This document shows positions 4,912 to 12,694 of a DNA stretch of 64,000 nt, piece by piece (position 1 is the stretch's first letter; every line of letters begins with the position of its first letter). The stretch comes from an uncultured Chitinophagales bacterium (GTDB lineage Bacteria; Bacteroidota; Ignavibacteria; UBA10030; UBA6906). The notes under the pieces were generated by a model. The model was given only the letters and a program-made list of their open reading frames with translations, made no database searches and was not told the origin of the DNA. Both the position numbers and the translations under genes were made by a program. The stretch covers positions 1,032 to 65,031 of the forward strand of contig CAZBWR010000011.1 of the NCBI GenBank assembly GCA_964495695.1, written 5' to 3'.

Positions 4912-6459
4912 TTATCTGGTCCGGTAGAATTCGATTCTCCGGTTCCGTTGCCGTCCCTCCTCCGTCCTGTTGGTGTCAATCGGATAATCCTGCCCGAAGC
5001 CGACAGCCTTGATGCGAAACTCTTCGATGCCTTTGTTGACGAGCCAGCGTTTGACGGATTCCGCGCGTTGCAGGGAGAGCCGGTTATTGAAGGCGCGTGT
5101 TCCTGTATTGTCCGTATGCCCGTGAATCTCGACCGTCATTTCGGGGTGTTGGGAAAGCGTGTTCAATGCAAGTGTCAGTATCTGTTCGGATTCAGGAGAG
5201 ATCACGGCGCTGGCTGTGCGAAATACGATTCCTTCAAGTACAATCGCCTTGCCTATCTCTGCTTTCAGTTCGGGCTTGCGCGGTATGTCGTCCGACGGGT
5301 CAAGAGGATTCGTGCCGCGGCGGACTTCAATGCCGTCATCGATGCCTCCTCTGTCGGTGTCGCGGTTTCTCGGGTCTGTGCGTGTGACGTTCAGTTCTTC
5401 AGAGTCCGTAAGTCCGTCATCGTCGGTATCGGCTTTGAGGGGATTGGTACCGTACTTTCTGACCTCGTCCGTGTCAGTCAGCCCGTCCCCGTCTGTGTCG
5501 ATCTTGAGTGGATCGGTGAAATACACATGCACCTCATCGCCATCGGAGAGTCCGTCACCGTCCGTATCCGGTTTGTTCGGGAAAGTCGAGTAACGGCGTA
5601 CTTCTTCTCCGTCCCGCAAGCCATCCCCATCTGTGTCGAATCGTAAGGGGTCGGTATTGTAACGCCAGATCTCTTCGCCATCTTTCAGTCCGTCGCCATC
5701 CGTGTCGGGGTTGTTTGGGTTTGTGCCGTAGCGGCGCTCATCGCTGTTGGAGAGCCCGTCTCCATCATCGTCGTCATCATCACGGCTTCCGAGGTAGAAA
5801 ATGAATCCTGCTCTCACGGATGGATACCAGTCGACAAGTCCGGGTGTTGCGCTTTCGAGTGTGTTCTTTTTGTGTCCTTTCCAATCGTCGGTGTAATCAT
5901 CGAGAATGCGTCCGCTGAAGTCGATCGTGAACGATACCCGCCGTGATGTGGGTAGCTCGAACCCGAAGCCGACAGGAATATGCATAGATGTGTTTGTTTT
6001 CCTGACGCCGTCCGGCAGGTACCGGTCGAACAAATCCTGTCGTGTATATGCCATTCCACCGATGCCGATAAACGCGTACGGCCGGATCTCCATAGTCGGC
6101 GGGAAGTGGTACCAGAGCACCAGATCCGCGCTGAGCGCTTTCAGTCCGATATATTCGTTCTCGACGACGGTATTCAACTGTGGAGGATCGAAGGGATACT
6201 GGATGGAAATGAGTCTGTCGTATCCCATCATCAGACCGAGAGAGAGCCTCGGCGCAAAGCCGTACCGGATGAACAGGTCGCCCCCGGGGGAAGCCCTCCG
6301 TGTGTTGAGATCATTGATCCACAAGTTGACGCCTCCGTGAAAGCCGATTGCCCATCGGTTCTCGGTCGAAAATTGAGGGGGTCGTGGTATGCTGAACTGA
6401 GCAAAGCCCGCTGTAACCGTGACGGTGAACGTGGCCGCAAGCAAGAACGTGCGTAGCAT
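4912..6459 (-). CDS. OmpA-family outer membrane protein: N-terminal beta-barrel, Ca-binding DxDxDG repeats, C-terminal OmpA-like peptidoglycan-binding domain
   Basis: Signal peptide, alternating aromatic beta-strands, GHTDNTG..N..LS..RA..V and NRRIEF motifs. Confidence 0.92.
   Translation of the reverse strand: MLRTFLLAATFTVTVTAGFAQFSIPRPPQFSTENRWAIGFHGGVNLWINDLNTRRASPGGDLFIRYGFAPRLSLGLMMGYDRLISIQYPFDPPQLNTVVENEYIGLKALSADLVLWYHFPPTMEIRPYAFIGIGGMAYTRQDLFDRYLPDGVRKTNTSMHIPVGFGFELPTSRRVSFTIDFSGRILDDYTDDWKGHKKNTLESATPGLVDWYPSVRAGFIFYLGSRDDDDDDGDGLSNSDERRYGTNPNNPDTDGDGLKDGEEIWRYNTDPLRFDTDGDGLRDGEEVRRYSTFPNKPDTDGDGLSDGDEVHVYFTDPLKIDTDGDGLTDTDEVRKYGTNPLKADTDDDGLTDSEELNVTRTDPRNRDTDRGGIDDGIEVRRGTNPLDPSDDIPRKPELKAEIGKAIVLEGIVFRTASAVISPESEQILTLALNTLSQHPEMTVEIHGHTDNTGTRAFNNRLSLQRAESVKRWLVNKGIEEFRIKAVGFGQDYPIDTNRTEEGRQRNRRIEFYRTR
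5287..5781 (-). repeat. Seven tandem 22-23 aa DTDGDGLxDxxE...T(D/N)P repeats within the OmpA gene
   Basis: Directly visible in the translation. Thrombospondin type-3-like Ca-binding pattern. Confidence 0.9.
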
Positions 6460-6797: not shown

Positions 6798-6989
6798 TCA
6801 CCTGCCGCCGAGGACTCGCGAGGGAAGCAAGAACAGGGCCTTGATGAACCGGAACAGCGCATCGACTGTGATGCCAACGAGGCGGAACGGCAACATGAGA
6901 AGCCAGACGATTGGATAGAGAATAAGGGCAAGCAGGGCGAGCGGCCAGCAAAGGATTGCTAGAATCAGCCAGAGAATGAATGTCAACAT
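6798..6989 (-). CDS. Small hydrophobic membrane protein (63 aa)
   Basis: GGAGG RBS. Almost entirely hydrophobic: MLTFILWLILAILCWPLALLALILYPIVWLL. Confidence 0.75.
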   Translation of the reverse strand: MLTFILWLILAILCWPLALLALILYPIVWLLMLPFRLVGITVDALFRFIKALFLLPSRVLGGR

Positions 6990-7075
6990 GGGTAACCTCC
7001 AAAGTTCTGATGAAGCATACGTACATTTTGCGACAGTGTTTCTTCTCTGCCGGTATCATCCATTAATCACCCTGT

Positions 7076-8326
7076 TTGTCCGCTGAAGTGTCACTCACAC
7101 TCTACATATTCGAAGATCCCGCCTACGTCAAGCTCTATCCGCTGGCGTATACACGACCCGTTTATGACATGCGCTGCGGGATGCTCACGCTGCGTGAGAA
7201 GATTGTGCGTGCCTACCCGCGTGCCCGGACAGTGCTTCTCTGTCGTCCATATTTGGCGGATGTCATGAGGGAGCAGAACCCGAAGCTCCCCGTCAATGAA
7301 TTCGCCGGAGGAGACAGTCTCTTTATTAACGGAAGAGTCCTGGTTGATGCCGCATTCCGGAAGGCTGTGCCGCCGACCGGGAGGGATACCATCTATCTGT
7401 CGGGCGGTATAATCGTCGCGGTGCGGATGCACGCAACGGAGGATCATTCTGGCCGTTTTGTGGACGGGTTTGATGTCGAACAGTTCGAGCATTGCGCAAA
7501 AGAGGAGATCCAGGCGCGGCTTGTTTCGTACCCGTGGGATCTCGTCCATCTGAACGGAGAAGAGTTACTGAAAGACAATGCAGCTCTTCCAGGAAAGAAA
7601 CCGCCGCTCTCTCCCGCTAAGTACGCCGGCGTTCATTTTGTCAATAAGAAAGCGATCCGGCTCGGCAGAGATGTTGTCATCAAGCCGGGAGTTGTCCTCG
7701 ATGCAGAGAACGGTCCGATCGTCATTGACAAAGGAACGAAAGTGCTTGCCAATGCAGTGATCGAGGGACCTGTGTATATCGGTGCCGGCTCGACCATCAA
7801 AGCGGGAGCGAAGATTTATGGCAACACTTCAATAGGACCTGTCTGCAAGGTCGGGGGCGAAGTGGAAGGAAGCATCATCCATTCATACTCAAACAAACAG
7901 CATGACGGCTTTCTCGGGCACTCGTATGTTGGTATGTGGTGCAACCTTGGTGCCGACACGAATACGAGTGATCTGAAAAACAACTACAGCACAGTGCAGG
8001 CCTACTGCAACGGAACAATGATAGACACCGGACAGCAATTCCTCGGCTTGACGATGGGGGATCACTCGAAGAGCAGCATCAACACGATGTTCAACACCGG
8101 CACTGTTGTGGGTGTGTCGTCGAATGTGTTCGGAGAAGGGTTCCCGCCAAAACACGTGCCATCATTTTCGTGGGGTGGAAGTGGTGGTTTGACGAGCTAC
8201 GTGCCTGAGAAGGCGATTGAAGTGGCCCGGCTAGTTATGGCAAGGAGGTCTGTGAGAATGACAGCTGCTGATGCAGAATTAATGCTGAGGATCTTTGAGC
8301 TCACGCGGGAAGAGCGTGGAGCTTAG
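7076..8326 (+). CDS. Alternative GlmU-type sugar nucleotidyltransferase/acetyltransferase (Bacteroidota/Chlorobi type)
   Basis: LYPLAYTRPVYDMRCGMLTLREK N-terminus, hexapeptide repeats, NKQHDGFLGHSYVGMWCNLGADT. Start uncertain (TTG 7076 or GTG 7088). Confidence 0.85.
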   Translation: MSAEVSLTLYIFEDPAYVKLYPLAYTRPVYDMRCGMLTLREKIVRAYPRARTVLLCRPYLADVMREQNPKLPVNEFAGGDSLFINGRVLVDAAFRKAVPPTGRDTIYLSGGIIVAVRMHATEDHSGRFVDGFDVEQFEHCAKEEIQARLVSYPWDLVHLNGEELLKDNAALPGKKPPLSPAKYAGVHFVNKKAIRLGRDVVIKPGVVLDAENGPIVIDKGTKVLANAVIEGPVYIGAGSTIKAGAKIYGNTSIGPVCKVGGEVEGSIIHSYSNKQHDGFLGHSYVGMWCNLGADTNTSDLKNNYSTVQAYCNGTMIDTGQQFLGLTMGDHSKSSINTMFNTGTVVGVSSNVFGEGFPPKHVPSFSWGGSGGLTSYVPEKAIEVARLVMARRSVRMTAADAELMLRIFELTREERGA

Positions 8327-8344
8327 TCACCGAGAGTGTCCACA

Positions 8345-8374
8345 AAAGAAAACGCCTCCCATCGGGAGGCGTTT
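8345..8374 (-). terminator. Intrinsic terminator, U-tract on the minus strand (ends the Zn-ribbon gene)
   Basis: AAACGCCTCCC-ATC-GGGAGGCGTTT with an A-rich left flank. Confidence 0.85.
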
Positions 8375-8400
8375 GGAACAAGATAATCTCTCGTCAGAGA

Positions 8401-8589
8401 TTAACTATCTGTCTTGAGATAGAAGGGGAGCTGCTGACGCATACGCTCGCGCTTTGCGCGGTATGCCATTTCCTTTTTCTTGCAGCTCGGACAACGATAT
8501 GCGCCGACCTGGCCACGAAATTCGTTTCCGCAATCCCGACAGATAGTGGAACCGCGTTTCTTCATTCTTGCATCACCTTTGTAATTCAT
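8401..8589 (-). CDS. Small basic Zn-ribbon protein (CxxC-x12-CxxC)
   Basis: CRDC...CPSC, GAGGAG RBS, dedicated terminator. Confidence 0.7.
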   Translation of the reverse strand: MNYKGDARMKKRGSTICRDCGNEFRGQVGAYRCPSCKKKEMAYRAKRERMRQQLPFYLKTDS

Positions 8590-8650
8590 AGTGTCCCTTT
8601 CTCCTCAGACAATATAACTCTTTTTGCCAAAAAATGATTCATATTTTATT

Positions 8651-8672
8651 CGATTCCCAAGTTTGGGAATCG
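8651..8672. promoter_or_regulatory. Perfect 10-bp inverted repeat, candidate operator
   Basis: CGATTCCCAA-GT-TTGGGAATCG in an AT-rich divergent intergenic region. Confidence 0.5.
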
Positions 8673-8806
8673 CCAAAATGTCCGATTTTGAGCCATTTTT
8701 GATTAAAATTTTTTTAGTTGTCGCATTTTCCCATATTTGACATTTGAATCGGTAAAAATTACCGCAACGTTCCAGACTGTTTGACATACACGAAAGCACC
8801 TATCCA

Positions 8807-9259
8807 ATGCCGCTCCGCAAAAAATCAGGCCCGCAAATCGCTCCGTCCCTTTCGAGATCCCTGACCGATGCCGCGAACGACGCGAAGACGAAAGCGTACG
8901 CTCCTTACTCACGATTCAGAGTCGGATCGGCGTTGCTTGCTGAAGATGGTACCGTGTTTACGGGATGCAATGTGGAGAACAGCTCGTTCTCCCTCACAAT
9001 TTGCGCCGAGCGCAATGCATTGTTCAAGGCAGTAAGTGAGGGACATTCAGTGTTCCGTGCTATTGCGGTAACATCAGATGATCCCGGCTTTCTGACGCCG
9101 TGCGGTGCTTGCAGACAGGTTTTATCGGAGTTCGCGCCGGACATTGAAGTGATTCTTGCGACAGCATCAGGGAAGATAAAGAGAACGAATCTGAAGGAGC
9201 TTCTTCCCATGCCCGCCAATCTTAAGAAGCTCGGAAGATCCCGTCGCAGGCGGTCATGA
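8807..9259 (+). CDS. cdd: Cytidine deaminase (homotetrameric type)
   Basis: AYAPYSRFRVGSAL, GCNVEN, ICAER, PCGACRQ zinc motifs. Confidence 0.95.
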   Translation: MPLRKKSGPQIAPSLSRSLTDAANDAKTKAYAPYSRFRVGSALLAEDGTVFTGCNVENSSFSLTICAERNALFKAVSEGHSVFRAIAVTSDDPGFLTPCGACRQVLSEFAPDIEVILATASGKIKRTNLKELLPMPANLKKLGRSRRRRS

Positions 9260-9579
9260 GAGCTTCTCCCGACTCGTTTCGGGTGATCTGGCGGACGGTT
9301 GCCCGCATCCCGAGGGGAAAGGTCGCTTCGTACGGCGATGTAGCGCGGGCCAGCAATCTTCCCGGACGGGCTCGGCTTGTCGGCTACGCCCTCCGCGGTC
9401 TTCCTCCCGGCATGGAGATTCCGTGGCATCGCGTCATCAATTCGCAGGGAAGAATCTCCTTTCCACCCCGCTCGTCCCCGTACAACCGCCAAAGAGAAAT
9501 GTTGGTGAGTGAAGGAATCGTATTCAAGAATGGCAAGGTCGATATGAAACAATTCGGCTGGAAAAGGTATCGAAGATGA
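9256..9579 (+). CDS. atl: Alkyltransferase-like protein (ATL/YbaZ, O6-alkylguanine binding)
   Basis: IPRGKVASYGDVA, ARLVG, and PWHRV (Trp replaces the MGMT active Cys). ATGA overlap with cdd. Confidence 0.92.
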   Translation: MRASPDSFRVIWRTVARIPRGKVASYGDVARASNLPGRARLVGYALRGLPPGMEIPWHRVINSQGRISFPPRSSPYNRQREMLVSEGIVFKNGKVDMKQFGWKRYRR

Positions 9580-10523
9580 ACCGGACGGACAGACTGCTGG
9601 CAATTATCCTCGAGTTGCAGAGAAAGAAGGTGGTGCGCGCCGGGGATCTTGCTGCGACGTTTGAAGTGACAAAGCGCAGTATCTACAGGGATATTCAGGC
9701 GATCAGTGAAGCCGGAGTTCCTCTGGTCGCTGTCCCCGGTCGTGGGTATTCGATCATGGAGGGGTACTTCCTGCCTCCGCTCAGCTTTTCACAGGATGAA
9801 GCAATGATGTTGATTCTCGGGGCTGAGTTTGTCGGGACGAGGTTCGACTCCCAATACCGGAAAGCCGCAACAGAGGCTCGCGGAAAGATTGAGGCAGTGC
9901 TACGTCCCTCACTTCGAGCTGAGGTGGATTCGTTGCGTGAGAACATCCAGTTTGTTTCGTTCGAGTCCGGGCAATCCGCCACATTGATTGAGCATCTGCG
10001 ACTCGTGAGAACGGCGATCATAGAAAAACGCTCGATCACATTCAAGTATCAAAAGCGTTGGAGTACGAAAGAAAAGGAACCGAAGACCCGCACCGTGGAT
10101 CCGTACGCGCTGCTTCATCTCGGATCCAATTGGATGCTTGCGGGGTATTGTCATCTCCGACATGATATTCGCAGTTTCAGGCTGAACCGGATGACCGGAT
10201 TGATTATGACAAATCGATCTTTCGAACGAAAGCGTAACTTCAAACTTGCTCAGCTCGCCGAGGATCGTGACCTGAATTTCAATGCCAGAGTACATCTTGC
10301 ATCGGGTGCTGCACGATGGCTCGACGAATCACTTCCCTACAAGGTTGTTGGTAGGGAGAAACGGCGCGACGGTGTTGTTCTGCGCATCGCCACTTCTAAA
10401 GAAGAACAACTTGTGGCCTGGATCCGCAGCTGGGGCCCGGAAGCGACGGTGCTGGAACCTTCCTCGTTGCGTCAACGCCTTAAAGATGAGGCGCAAAGCG
10501 CTCTTCAACGGTACACAGATTAA
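9576..10523 (+). CDS. YafY-family HTH-WYL-WCX transcriptional regulator
   Basis: MNRTDRLLAI, FEVTKRSIYRDI HTH, RTVDPYAL..GSNWMLAGYCHLRHDIRSFRLNR WYL domain, WIRSWG..A.VLEP.SLR WCX tail. ATGA overlap with atl. Confidence 0.95.
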   Translation: MNRTDRLLAIILELQRKKVVRAGDLAATFEVTKRSIYRDIQAISEAGVPLVAVPGRGYSIMEGYFLPPLSFSQDEAMMLILGAEFVGTRFDSQYRKAATEARGKIEAVLRPSLRAEVDSLRENIQFVSFESGQSATLIEHLRLVRTAIIEKRSITFKYQKRWSTKEKEPKTRTVDPYALLHLGSNWMLAGYCHLRHDIRSFRLNRMTGLIMTNRSFERKRNFKLAQLAEDRDLNFNARVHLASGAARWLDESLPYKVVGREKRRDGVVLRIATSKEEQLVAWIRSWGPEATVLEPSSLRQRLKDEAQSALQRYTD

Positions 10524-10543
10524 TTTCTTGCCTGAAAAGTTGC

Positions 10544-10576
10544 TGACATAATGCTGTCACAAGGCGGTTGTATCTT
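10544..10576 (+). promoter_or_regulatory. Candidate WYL-activator-dependent promoter: TGACA-N6-TGTCA palindrome, TGTCAC-N10-TATCTT
   Basis: Perfect 5-bp IR at 10544-10548/10555-10559. -10 TATCTT at 10571-10576, the same hexamer as the mraZ and rplU promoters. No TTG -35. Confidence 0.7.
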
Positions 10577-10620
10577 CAAGGTGAAATTCATCACAAAAAG
10601 AACAACCCAAAGGAGGCAGT

Positions 10621-10938
10621 ATGGGCGACAGGAATTCTGTCGTTGAATTGGCAATCATCAGAATGAAACCGGAAGCGGTAAGTTCGATGCCCGAAATGAG
10701 ACAGTTGCTGCAGAAGTGGCTTGAAGGAGTTCCCGGATTTCTGAAGTACGTGCCGTATCAGTCATTTGAGGATTCATCAGTCTTTGCTGATTACTTGGAG
10801 TGGGATTCACTCGAGAGTGCAAAGGGAGCGGCCAAGCATTTTGCAAACTCGGCGGCGGGGGCGTCTCTTATGTCAGGTGTCGAGGCGACACTCTTCTTCG
10901 GCCACTTCGTTCCCACACCGATGAAGGAGCAAGTATGA
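10621..10938 (+). CDS. ABM-like dimeric alpha/beta-barrel protein
   Basis: AAGGAGG RBS. PGFL...S......DYLEWDSLESA pattern. Confidence 0.7.
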   Translation: MGDRNSVVELAIIRMKPEAVSSMPEMRQLLQKWLEGVPGFLKYVPYQSFEDSSVFADYLEWDSLESAKGAAKHFANSAAGASLMSGVEATLFFGHFVPTPMKEQV

Positions 10939-11513
10939 GCGGAAAAAAATCCGGAAAGCGGGTCCGTTGTTCGTGGTGTGGAACCGATCCCGTGTATGTC
11001 CTGTATCATGACAGGGAGTGGGGAGTCCCTGTCCATGATGACCGCAAGCTTTTTGAGATGCTGATATTGGAAGGGGCTCAAGCGGGCCTGAGCTGGATCA
11101 CCATTCTGCGGAAACGGGAAAACTACAGAAAGGCATTCGATAATTTTGACCCGGTAAAAGTTGCCCGGTATGATCGCCGGAAGCTTGCGACGCTCTTGAA
11201 GGATGAAGGAATCGTACGCAACAGGCTGAAGATCCAGGCTGCGGTGACGAATGCCAGGGCGTTCCTTGCAGTGCGGAAGGAGTACGGGAGCTTCGACCGC
11301 TATATCTGGCAGTTCGTCGGGGGGAAGCCGAAGAAGAATTCTCCGAAATCCCTCAAAGATGTACCCTCAAAATCACCGGAGTCGGATGCTATGAGTAAGG
11401 ACCTGCTGAAGCGTGGCTTCAAATTCGTCGGGTCGACGATTTGCTACGCATTTATGCAAGCAACGGGGATGGTAAATGACCACACGGTCGACTGTTGGAA
11501 GTACAAACGGTGA
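10935..11513 (+). CDS. tag: DNA-3-methyladenine glycosylase I
   Basis: RCSWC, YHDREWG, LEGAQAGLSW, IVRNRLKI, GFKFVGSTICYAFMQATGMVNDH. ATGA overlap with the upstream gene. Confidence 0.97.
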   Translation: MSGKKSGKRVRCSWCGTDPVYVLYHDREWGVPVHDDRKLFEMLILEGAQAGLSWITILRKRENYRKAFDNFDPVKVARYDRRKLATLLKDEGIVRNRLKIQAAVTNARAFLAVRKEYGSFDRYIWQFVGGKPKKNSPKSLKDVPSKSPESDAMSKDLLKRGFKFVGSTICYAFMQATGMVNDHTVDCWKYKR

Positions 11514-11524
11514 GCCATCGGGGC

Positions 11525-12514
11525 TCAGTTGTACGGTTTCCGATCAAACATAATCCGGTTGAGCCTCCGTTGTTCATCATAATAGAATTCCATGATGAAT
11601 GGCTGTGGAGTGTCAGTCATGCCAAATCGCTCCAGTAGCTCCGGTCTTGTCGAGAACTGCAAATCACGCAGAGTCACCACGGTATAATTTGCCTCGTTTC
11701 GCATCGTGACGTAAGGATGTCTGGCGAAAGTCAGATATCGTCGCACAAGTTCATGACTCATTGTAGTATCAACGAGCGGTCCACTTGCATTGATGTGTAT
11801 CGAAAAGGAAAGAGAGTCATCAAACACCGAAAAGAACGCCTGGTGCACGCCCCTCTCAGTCTGCACGAGTCCATTCCACCTGAAGATGCTGAAGGGTTGG
11901 GGTAGAGCGGAAGAGTAAACGGGAACAACTGCGCGCTGCGCCGCTGCTTCATGTACACGTTTCAAGGCAATCGTCTGTAGGAATGCCTCAAGGCTGAGAT
12001 ATGCGATCACAAACACTAACGTGATCCGGACAAGGATTCGTGCGCGCCGCTTCAAGATCTTGGCTGACAAGAGAAGGAGCGCCATGCTGCCGGTAAACAC
12101 CGGGTCGATGATGAACATCCAGTCGAGCGCGAAGCGCTTGTCGCTGAGAGGGTAGAGAATTCGTGTGCCGAACGTTGTGATCAGGTCGAAGAAGATGTGA
12201 ACGCAAATCCCGATAAGCGCAAAGCTCCAGAGAAGGCGGAAGTTCTTTACGGACCCCAGCTTGTAGGTGATCGCTGCCGGCAACAGGGCAAAGACCGGGG
12301 CGAAAACCAGGGAGTGCGTCAGTCCACGGTGGTGCATCACGTAGGAGAAATAGTCGGTAAACAGCCGTAGTGCCGCATCGATATCGGGGAGGTTTGCGCA
12401 CACGACGGTTAACCAGAACAGGGTCCGGTGGTGCTGCCCGGGCACGATGCCGGAGGAGGAGGTGAGCACTTTCGCGGCTACAGCGCCTGTCAGGGAATGT
12501 GTAATATTGTCCAT
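11525..12514 (-). CDS. YdjM-like membrane-bound metal-dependent hydrolase
   Basis: MDNITHSLTG, NLPDID, HRGLTHS, HIFFDLITTFGT, FIIDP motifs. Confidence 0.88.
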   Translation of the reverse strand: MDNITHSLTGAVAAKVLTSSSGIVPGQHHRTLFWLTVVCANLPDIDAALRLFTDYFSYVMHHRGLTHSLVFAPVFALLPAAITYKLGSVKNFRLLWSFALIGICVHIFFDLITTFGTRILYPLSDKRFALDWMFIIDPVFTGSMALLLLSAKILKRRARILVRITLVFVIAYLSLEAFLQTIALKRVHEAAAQRAVVPVYSSALPQPFSIFRWNGLVQTERGVHQAFFSVFDDSLSFSIHINASGPLVDTTMSHELVRRYLTFARHPYVTMRNEANYTVVTLRDLQFSTRPELLERFGMTDTPQPFIMEFYYDEQRRLNRIMFDRKPYN

Positions 12515-12694
12515 AATAAAGATGAAGCAGAATTAATTGAGCGGTACGCAAACAGAAGAGGAAATCGCTTGCGTCGCCGAAATCAGAGCCGTGCGCAGGT
12601 TGTATTCTCCAGCCGAATCGCGTATTTTGAGCATTCTTAGTTCAAGGAACGGGCGTTCCATTCACATATGTATCATAAAAAGGAAATCGATCAG

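Follow-up and report, generated by a model that had tools for sequence, protein, structure and literature searches.

A five-gene locus at positions 8807–11513 of a 64,000-nucleotide stretch of contig CAZBWR010000011.1 (the window), which derives from an uncultured bacterium of the class Ignavibacteria, combines genes for the handling of alkylated DNA with a transcription factor of the WYL family. The open reading frame (ORF) list and the sequence place all five genes on the plus strand, in the order cdd (cytidine deaminase), atl (alkyltransferase-like protein, ATL), a regulator with a helix-turn-helix (HTH), a WYL and a WCX domain, a gene for a probable ABM-fold protein, and tag (DNA-3-methyladenine glycosylase I). 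A 97-bp gap (10524–10620) divides them into a cdd-atl-WYL unit and an ABM-tag unit, and direct reading of the sequence bears out the gene order, the coordinates and the ATGA stop/start overlaps at 9256, 9576 and 10935 given in a preliminary description of this DNA. The regulator very probably controls the ABM-tag unit, as that description had proposed, in view of a conserved operator and promoter found in the gap. On balance, comparative evidence favors a general WYL activator of the SiwR/PafBC/DriD kind, which would respond to single-stranded DNA (ssDNA) or genotoxic stress and boost tag, with no circuit specific for alkylation.

The operator, CTGACATAATGCTGTCAC, is 18 bp long (10543–10560, plus strand), is conserved beside orthologous WYL genes and contains the inverted repeat TGACA-N5-TGTCA (10545–10559). 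The motif was first noticed when the DNA 3' of the WYL stop codon of each orthologous locus was lined up. The set consists of 80 fetched genomic loci and several metagenomic ones (0.90 Mb of DNA; loci carry L numbers below). Beside the orthologous WYL genes of this set, CTGACATAnnGnTGTCAC matches exactly at all 14 fixed bases, CTGACATA....TGTCAC, 60 times (0.007 matches expected by chance), and the loci that bear it belong to Ignavibacteria, Acidobacteria and Chloroflexi. The site lies at a median of 9 nt past the WYL stop codon, which it sometimes overlaps, and 60 nt ahead of the next gene. The 64-kb window contains one exact copy. A further copy upstream of cdd, which would point to autoregulation, was considered and is absent: the remaining matches in the window carry two mismatches and are at chance level.

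Alignment of 64 distinct sites gives the consensus aaAa.gCTgCTGACATAa.GtTGTCACtcggct....TA.a.Tg. A -10-like TAnanT stands at a fixed register, 10 nt past TGTCAC, in 61 of them, and the combined operator and promoter pattern reads CTGACATAnnnnTGTCAC-N10-TAnnnT. In the window, the 3' operator half TGTCAC (10555–10560, plus strand) is the predicted -26 element and TATCTT (10571–10576, plus strand), N10 past the operator, the predicted -10 hexamer. This would put the start of transcription near 10583 and the operator at about -38 to -23. None of the 64 aligned promoters has a TTGACA-like -35 hexamer at 16–18 nt spacing, as judged by the sigma-70 consensus, which may not be the rule for ignavibacterial sigma-A. 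Where the spacer is long or a gene on the opposite strand intervenes, as in several Ktedonobacteraceae loci, the operator remains with the downstream cargo gene, which argues that it belongs to the promoter of the cargo rather than to the 3' end of the WYL gene.

Two variants of this layout were seen. In L012, L022, L044, L072 and L050 (Ktedonobacteraceae and Aggregatilineales) the operator is found ~600 bp past the WYL stop codon, beside a VOC cargo gene, and in four of these loci the intervening sequence has a GC-rich hairpin and an opposite-strand ORF. L083 carries tandem ~50-bp repeats (GGGGCGAACCGTTGTTCGCCCTGGCAA...) 3' of its WYL gene (6948–7190). Since the exact operator is present twice in this locus, at 7189 and at 8902, its cargo promoter may have been duplicated.

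The regulator (9576–10523, plus strand, 315 residues) is a YafY-family, SiwR/PafBC-like protein of HTH_11-WYL-WCX architecture, as established by Pfam and PDB sequence searches. It consists of an N-terminal winged HTH domain (PF08279, 1.8e-13), a central, Sm-like WYL domain (PF13280, 5.5e-20) and a C-terminal WCX domain (PF25583, 7.9e-15), the build of class A (PafBC-like) WYL transcription factors. Its nearest homologues, ~50% identical, come from Ignavibacteria, Acidobacteria (Blastocatellia) and Chloroflexi, and its top matches in the PDB are PafBC (6sj9), PafC and PafB (7p5x). Residues R172, R195, R199, R202 and R205 correspond, with identical spacing, to R181, R204, R208, R211 and R214 of PafB, which are needed for ssDNA binding (PMC11804915), and R201 and R204 of PafC align with R202 and R205. 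Among 31 family members these five groove arginines are invariant or replaced by lysine at most. R34 and R38 of the recognition helix are invariant and match R46 and R50 of PafB, which read the GTC of its site (PMC8635444). The N-terminus, MNRTDRL, is likewise invariant in this family of orthologues. The protein keeps the ssDNA-sensing arginines of PafBC, in line with the sensor role first suggested for it. Its gene stands alone, lacks a paralogue and is not flanked by paf or proteasome genes, and the protein probably acts as a homodimer, because there is one gene and a dyad site, as with SiwR and DriD.

The promoter geometry is that of PafBC. PafBC occurs in mycobacteria and other Actinobacteria. 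Its in vivo motif is tGTCgg(N10)tA(N3)T, the 5' part of which lies at -23 to -28 and stands in for the -35 box by 'sigma adaptation' (PMC8635444). The 22-nt frame TGTCAC-N10-TATCTT of the window (10555–10576) reproduces the PafBC frame, with an upstream element and no -35 box, and PafBC components are also the best solved sequence relatives, their GTC-reading arginines and all five ssDNA-binding ones being conserved in the window regulator. PafBC is, however, a heterodimer or a fused double protein that has a non-palindromic site, is encoded at the Pup-proteasome locus and serves ~150 genes (PMC8635444, PMC11804915, PMC6789036), whereas the window regulator is the product of a single gene, with a palindromic site, no such neighbors and one exact site in 64 kb. 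In Caulobacter crescentus, DriD binds a dyad site that covers the place of the absent -35 box and keeps a constant distance from the -10 element (PMC13004042). It is a homodimeric WYL activator switched by ssDNA (PMC9186387, PMC10853764, PMC13004042), and the same is predicted for the window regulator, the dyad of which also overlaps the missing -35 position. Unlike the window regulator with its adjacent cargo operon, DriD serves a small dispersed regulon (didA, bapE and others), and the PDB search with the regulator returned no significant DriD match.

The following mechanism is proposed. The regulator would be made, probably constitutively, from the last gene of the cdd-atl-WYL unit. The two HTH domains of the probable homodimer would bind the inverted repeat in a promoter that has a -10 but not a -35 element, and ssDNA generated by damage would be bound by the WYL domains through the conserved arginine groove. 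Loaded with ssDNA, the regulator would recruit or adapt the housekeeping RNA polymerase, either by sigma adaptation of the PafBC type or by assembly of the DriD type, and the ABM-tag unit would be transcribed. Damage would then induce Tag beyond the basal level supplied by read-through from the cdd promoter. A generic signal of genotoxic stress is probable, because most operons of the family carry DinB or glyoxalase/VOC genes, like that of SiwR. Alkylation would count as one input among others, by way of gaps at forks blocked by 3-methyladenine (3-meA) or of base excision repair intermediates. We infer binding, activator polarity, the ssDNA ligand and induction; the gene identities, the operator with its cross-phylum invariance, the fixed -10 register, the conserved residues, the recurrence of tag in these operons and the range of cargo genes come straight from the sequences.

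The opposite polarity, in which the regulator is a repressor like BrxR or CapW that blocks RNA polymerase until a ligand frees the operator, would also make the ABM-tag unit inducible. The fixed geometry bears on it in two ways: a palindrome at this position, between the -35 and -10 regions, is where a repressor could sit, but a promoter with no -35 hexamer at usable spacing in any of the aligned sites should be weak when free, and the arrangement is that of an activator motif. No ligand is needed for SiwR, DriD, BrxR or CapW to bind DNA at their sites (PMC11804915), and the known homodimeric WYL factors linked to defence repress (PMC10693628). PADLOC generic WYL models do match the regulator. 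The closest solved relatives, though, are PafB and PafC, while in the PDB sequence search CapW is marginal (4e-4) and BrxR absent. BrxR and CapW stand next to BREX, CBASS, CRISPR or other defence systems, and here PADLOC is blank on every neighboring gene; a reading of the locus as a defence system was rejected on the same result. With cargo of an enzymatic or detoxification type in 60 loci, and with all damage-linked WYL factors described so far being activators, repression appears quite unlikely.

The cargo brings in the third known relative. SiwR (MSMEG_1359) of Mycobacterium smegmatis, a homodimeric WYL protein, activates the DinB (dinS) operon next to it under genotoxic stress (H2O2, zeocin or MMC) via ssDNA (Keller, Flattich & Weber-Ban 2023, PMC10693628). 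Its site, an imperfect palindrome of 19 bp, lies between -35 and -10 and has an essential -26 region, its cargo families are DinB_2, MST/DUF664/PF04978 and, in some Actinobacteria, glyoxalase-like PF18029, and its orthologues are reported in Actinobacteria only (PMC10693628). In 60 non-redundant loci of the present family, the first gene past the operator encodes a Glyoxalase/VOC protein in 27 cases (7 of them Ble-like_N), a DinB/DinB_2/MST protein in 23 and an SDR protein in 5; DUF1801 (1), SRPBCC (1) and the ABM protein of the window are rarer. An adjacent DinB or glyoxalase-like operon with a palindrome between -35 and -10, the SiwR arrangement, is found at the level of the family but not in the cargo of the window, where ABM and Tag are neither DinB nor VOC.

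The window family and SiwR share the single-chain HTH-WYL-WCX architecture, local regulation of an adjacent small operon and common cargo families. In both, the operator between -35 and -10 is an imperfect palindrome whose two inverted GTC/GAC cores are spaced by roughly one turn of the helix, the loop between β4 and β5 of the WYL domain carries RxxR arginines, and the recognition helix carries R-x3-R (R38/R42 in SiwR, R34/R38 in the window). They differ in that the window family occurs in Ignavibacteria, Acidobacteria and Chloroflexi rather than Actinobacteria. SiwR is divergent from its cargo, whereas here regulator and cargo follow one another in tandem, and the SiwR operator is TAGGAC-N7-GTCCTA as opposed to TGACA-N5-TGTCA. 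In Ignavibacteria the last cargo gene encodes a true repair enzyme, Tag, and the window regulator is translationally coupled to atl.

The same cargo could belong to a switch for resistance to xenobiotics or genotoxins, in which the signal for the regulator is a small molecule or damaged nucleotide instead of ssDNA, the cargo detoxifies the compound and Tag clears the adducts that it leaves. The folds are small and of a detoxification type (VOC/bleomycin-resistance-like with its Ble-like_N matches, DinB thiol-transferase-like, SDR, ABM and SRPBCC), the ligands of WYL domains vary from protein to protein, and the ABM cargo of two loci, L001 and L093, has a signal peptide. The complete set of ssDNA-contacting arginines of PafB is nevertheless conserved with identical spacing, and SiwR, with the same cargo types, binds ssDNA without preferring an oligonucleotide that contains a lesion. 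We regard such a switch as rather unlikely, and it is in part compatible with general activation by ssDNA.

The tag gene is a recurrent end point of these operons. In Ignavibacteria-type loci it is always the last cargo gene, tightly coupled to the one before it (often overlapping by 4 bp or separated by 2–18 bp), in at least five operon layouts: ABM-tag in the window, DinB, ABM-like, DUF1801, tag in L001, DUF1801, DinB_2, tag in L002 and L006, SDR, (DUF1801), tag in L018, L049, L057 and L076, and VOC, a 47-residue ORF, DinB_2, tag in L090. Because the flanks differ between the layouts, the linkage of WYL and tag exceeds inherited synteny. The situation of cdd and atl is different: tblastn finds neither of them beside the orthologous WYL genes in any of 85 loci. 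Of the linkages for which the preliminary description suggested a synteny survey, WYL with tag recurs, and WYL with cdd and atl is private to this lineage.

The nearest relative, represented by L086 and L087, has ~78% nucleotide identity with the window locus and is colinear with it, with OmpA-like and GlmU-like genes, a 62-residue zinc-ribbon gene, cdd, atl and then tag, FKBP and TPR genes. In these strains the order is cdd-atl-tag, with 146 bp from atl to tag. A segment of 1,209 bp (9593–10801, plus strand) is missing, as shown by a break in blastn colinearity at 9592/10802. The deletion removes WYL codons 7–315, operator and promoter together with the first ~60 ABM codons, and is in frame, the junction reading GTG AAC CGG ACC GAC AGG / GAC TCA TTG... 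It leaves a 49-codon fusion ORF (L086 6322–6473, L087 1239–1390), WYL(1–6) (V)NRTDR :: ABM(~61–105), the stop codon of which overlaps the tag ATG; selection may have kept translational coupling to tag in this allele. The deletion shows that the two strains descend from one with the order cdd-atl-WYL-ABM-tag, and that tag survives without the regulator. In L089, atl and tag lie ~1 kb apart without WYL, and Tag of the window is 71–84% identical to Tag of WYL-linked and atl-linked loci alike, the same range as among the Tag proteins of Ignavibacteria-type loci. On this comparison, atl-tag appears as a repair pairing of its own in the clade and WYL-cargo-tag as a second recurrent pairing, the two being joined in the window. 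Most simply, a WYL-operator-ABM cassette would have been inserted, or recombined via tag, into a cdd-atl-tag operon, with atl and cdd as neighbors by local history that stand outside the conserved module.

These strains also speak for a neutral reading of the adjacency, in which read-through from the cdd-atl promoter suffices for constitutive expression of tag and the regulator serves ABM alone or nothing. L088 and L086/L087 have cdd-atl-tag with no functional WYL module, a terminator scan finds no convincing terminator between WYL and ABM, and tag of E. coli is constitutive. (A terminator call at 10553–10568 was rejected as an operator half-site, and the sigma-70 promoter and terminator scans are uninformative.) But at least seven other genomes end a WYL-controlled cargo operon in tag with no cdd-atl upstream, despite reshuffled cargo and flanks, and with the ABM and tag genes overlapping by ATGA, any transcript from the operator-bearing promoter includes tag. 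We regard it as distinctly unlikely that lying next to this regulator is without consequence for the control of tag.

The claim of an alkylation-specific response independent of Ada and SOS, made when the locus was first described, exceeds the evidence: the predicted signal is generic ssDNA, the usual cargo is DinB or VOC, atl is a local neighbor, and atl-tag occurs without WYL in L086, L088 and L089. The locus shares with the Ada response and the constitutive Tag of E. coli the lesions addressed, O6-alkylguanine by an Ogt-fold protein and 3-meA by Tag. It differs from Ada in that family and domain searches of the locus genes find no Ada-type methyl-acceptor regulator, the kind that controls alkA, alkB or aidB, the ATL has no transferase cysteine, and the predicted signal is ssDNA rather than a methylated regulator.

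Several observations weigh against activation of tag by ssDNA. Homodimeric WYL factors such as BrxR and CapW repress, and the place of the operator, within the spacer of the promoter, suits repression as well. The 'no -35' finding was measured on the sigma-70 consensus, and ignavibacterial sigma-A may follow other promoter rules. The Tyr of the WYL triplet is Met in the regulator and is kept in 15 of 31 family members. SiwR is likened here by its published description and by the operator in the primer table of that paper, which makes the regulator SiwR-like and at most a candidate orthologue. The nearest relative has lost WYL and promoter yet retains tag, which excludes a strict dependence of tag on the regulator, and L088, a more distant Ignavibacteriae metagenome-assembled genome (MAG), has overlapping cdd-atl-tag genes and no trace of WYL. 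Finally, RNA runs were screened for the locus and none contains it.

The identities of ATL, regulator and Tag given in the preliminary description are confirmed by Pfam, TIGR and PDB matches. The cdd gene (8807–9259, plus strand), the first of the upstream unit, encodes a tetrameric-type cytidine deaminase (TIGR01354, 148 bits against a cut-off of 114; PF00383). The ATL (atl, 9256–9579, plus strand, 107 residues), a protein of the O6-alkylguanine-binding type whose gene has ATGA overlaps at both ends, matches PF01035 alone. It has PWHRV in place of the transferase PCHR, hence no active-site Cys (ATLs have Trp or Ala at this position), and consists of the Ogt C-terminal DNA-binding fold alone; its closest PDB sequences are vpAtl (2kif, 1.4e-21) and S. 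pombe Atl1 (3gva, 5e-18). The tag gene (10935–11513, plus strand), the last of the cargo, is ATGA-coupled to the ABM gene, and its product matches TIGR00624 with 261 bits (cut-off 232) and PF03352 with 1e-85. On inspection, it has C12, H25 and a C-terminal NDH..C, which we take to be the Cys and His residues of the Zn-snap by their positions in the E. coli protein.

The first cargo gene (10621–10938, plus strand) is preceded by the Shine-Dalgarno sequence AAGGAGG (10610–10616, plus strand), 4 nt ahead of its ATG, and encodes a 105-residue protein assigned to the ABM fold (dimeric α+β barrel) by remote homologues and an AF2 model. Its direct match to PF03992 is weak (17.8 bits against a cut-off of 23.1, E = 0.004). 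A search of an index of 5.8e9 proteins gave no close homologues, and an exhaustive HMMER search, which alone finds remote ones, gives 142 relatives, with PF03992 matched by nine of the ten nearest. ABM proteins have a ferredoxin-like fold of two β-α-β units. The AF2 model (pLDDT 70.6) has the order β-α-β-β-α-β, and the Foldseek PDB matches listed for it are overwhelmingly ABM or dimeric α+β-barrel proteins (TM 0.55–0.63). The protein is homologous to the 128-residue cargo proteins of L001 and L093 (26%, E = 8e-12). These (L001 6723–7109, L093 1617–2003) have an N-terminal signal-peptide-like segment that is absent in the window protein, so members of this cargo family may act outside the cytoplasm in some genomes.

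The gene arrangement is genuine and not an assembly artefact, because contigs of independent bioreactor, wastewater and rhizosphere metagenomes cross both junctions of the locus, and a single 11.2-kb metagenome contig runs across 9186–12600 with no gaps or joints. A search of 8300–11800 for Rfam families returned sub-threshold noise only.

The surroundings contain further features. The 62-residue zinc-ribbon-like protein upstream of cdd (8401–8589, minus strand) has two CxxC pairs and is 100% identical in L086, L087 and L088, against 57–92% for its neighbors. The adjoining intergenic DNA (8590–8720) is ~95% identical between the window and L086/L087, against ~78% locus-wide, and contains a 10+2+10 palindrome, CGATTCCCAA-GT-TTGGGAATCG, at 8651–8672; it may be a conserved leader, an operator or a small RNA. 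On the other side, a YdjM-family membrane hydrolase gene (11525–12514, minus strand) is convergent with tag and has no counterpart in L086, where 27 bp take its place, or in L088, where the FKBP gene is directly 3' of tag. The difference (11516–12483) is an indel specific to the window lineage. A gene at 4912–6459 (minus strand), in the same position in L086 and L088, encodes an outer-membrane protein of the OmpA family that has a run of Asp residues and many calcium-binding repeats of the thrombospondin type-3 kind (TSP3_bac).

The kind of system found here is already known from SiwR and from PafBC and DriD, whose mechanisms have been resolved, and the window holds a new relative of these, not a new kind of system. 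In M. smegmatis, TagA is 1.8-fold lower in a pafBC deletion (PMC5656591); beyond this proteome table of PafBC, a literature search found nothing on a WYL factor tied to tag or atl. The preliminary description knew of no such response in this lineage; the lineage is new, the kind of system is not, and PafBC already has an influence on TagA. What is new is the lineage, the cross-phylum-invariant operator with PafBC-type geometry, the fixed tag cargo in Ignavibacteria, the atl-tag splice and the natural deletion allele. A wider reading would see in the family a non-actinobacterial circuit of at least three phyla, the FCB lineage included, that gives Ignavibacteria an ssDNA-triggered induction of Tag, and with it base excision in answer to alkylation, independent of Ada and LexA and that was spliced here into an ancestral atl-tag operon. 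It assumes a WYL activator that is a homodimer of single chains, a hybrid -26/-10 promoter like that of PafBC and one invariant 18-bp operator, and we put it forward as tentative and rather doubtful in its full extent.

Outside Actinobacteria, DriD is the only ssDNA-sensing WYL activator that has been shown to replace the -35 contact. The present family, with one regulator, an invariant 18-bp site, a fixed -10 register and dozens of cargo swaps in three phyla, is a simple test bed for how general this is. For comparison there is the L086/L087 allele, a naturally occurring in-frame knockout of the regulator. In genome annotation, 'YafY family' genes that precede DinB or VOC genes could in many cases be read as SiwR-like modules. 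For the organisms themselves, the locus suggests that Tag, the textbook constitutive glycosylase, may be damage-inducible in Ignavibacteria.

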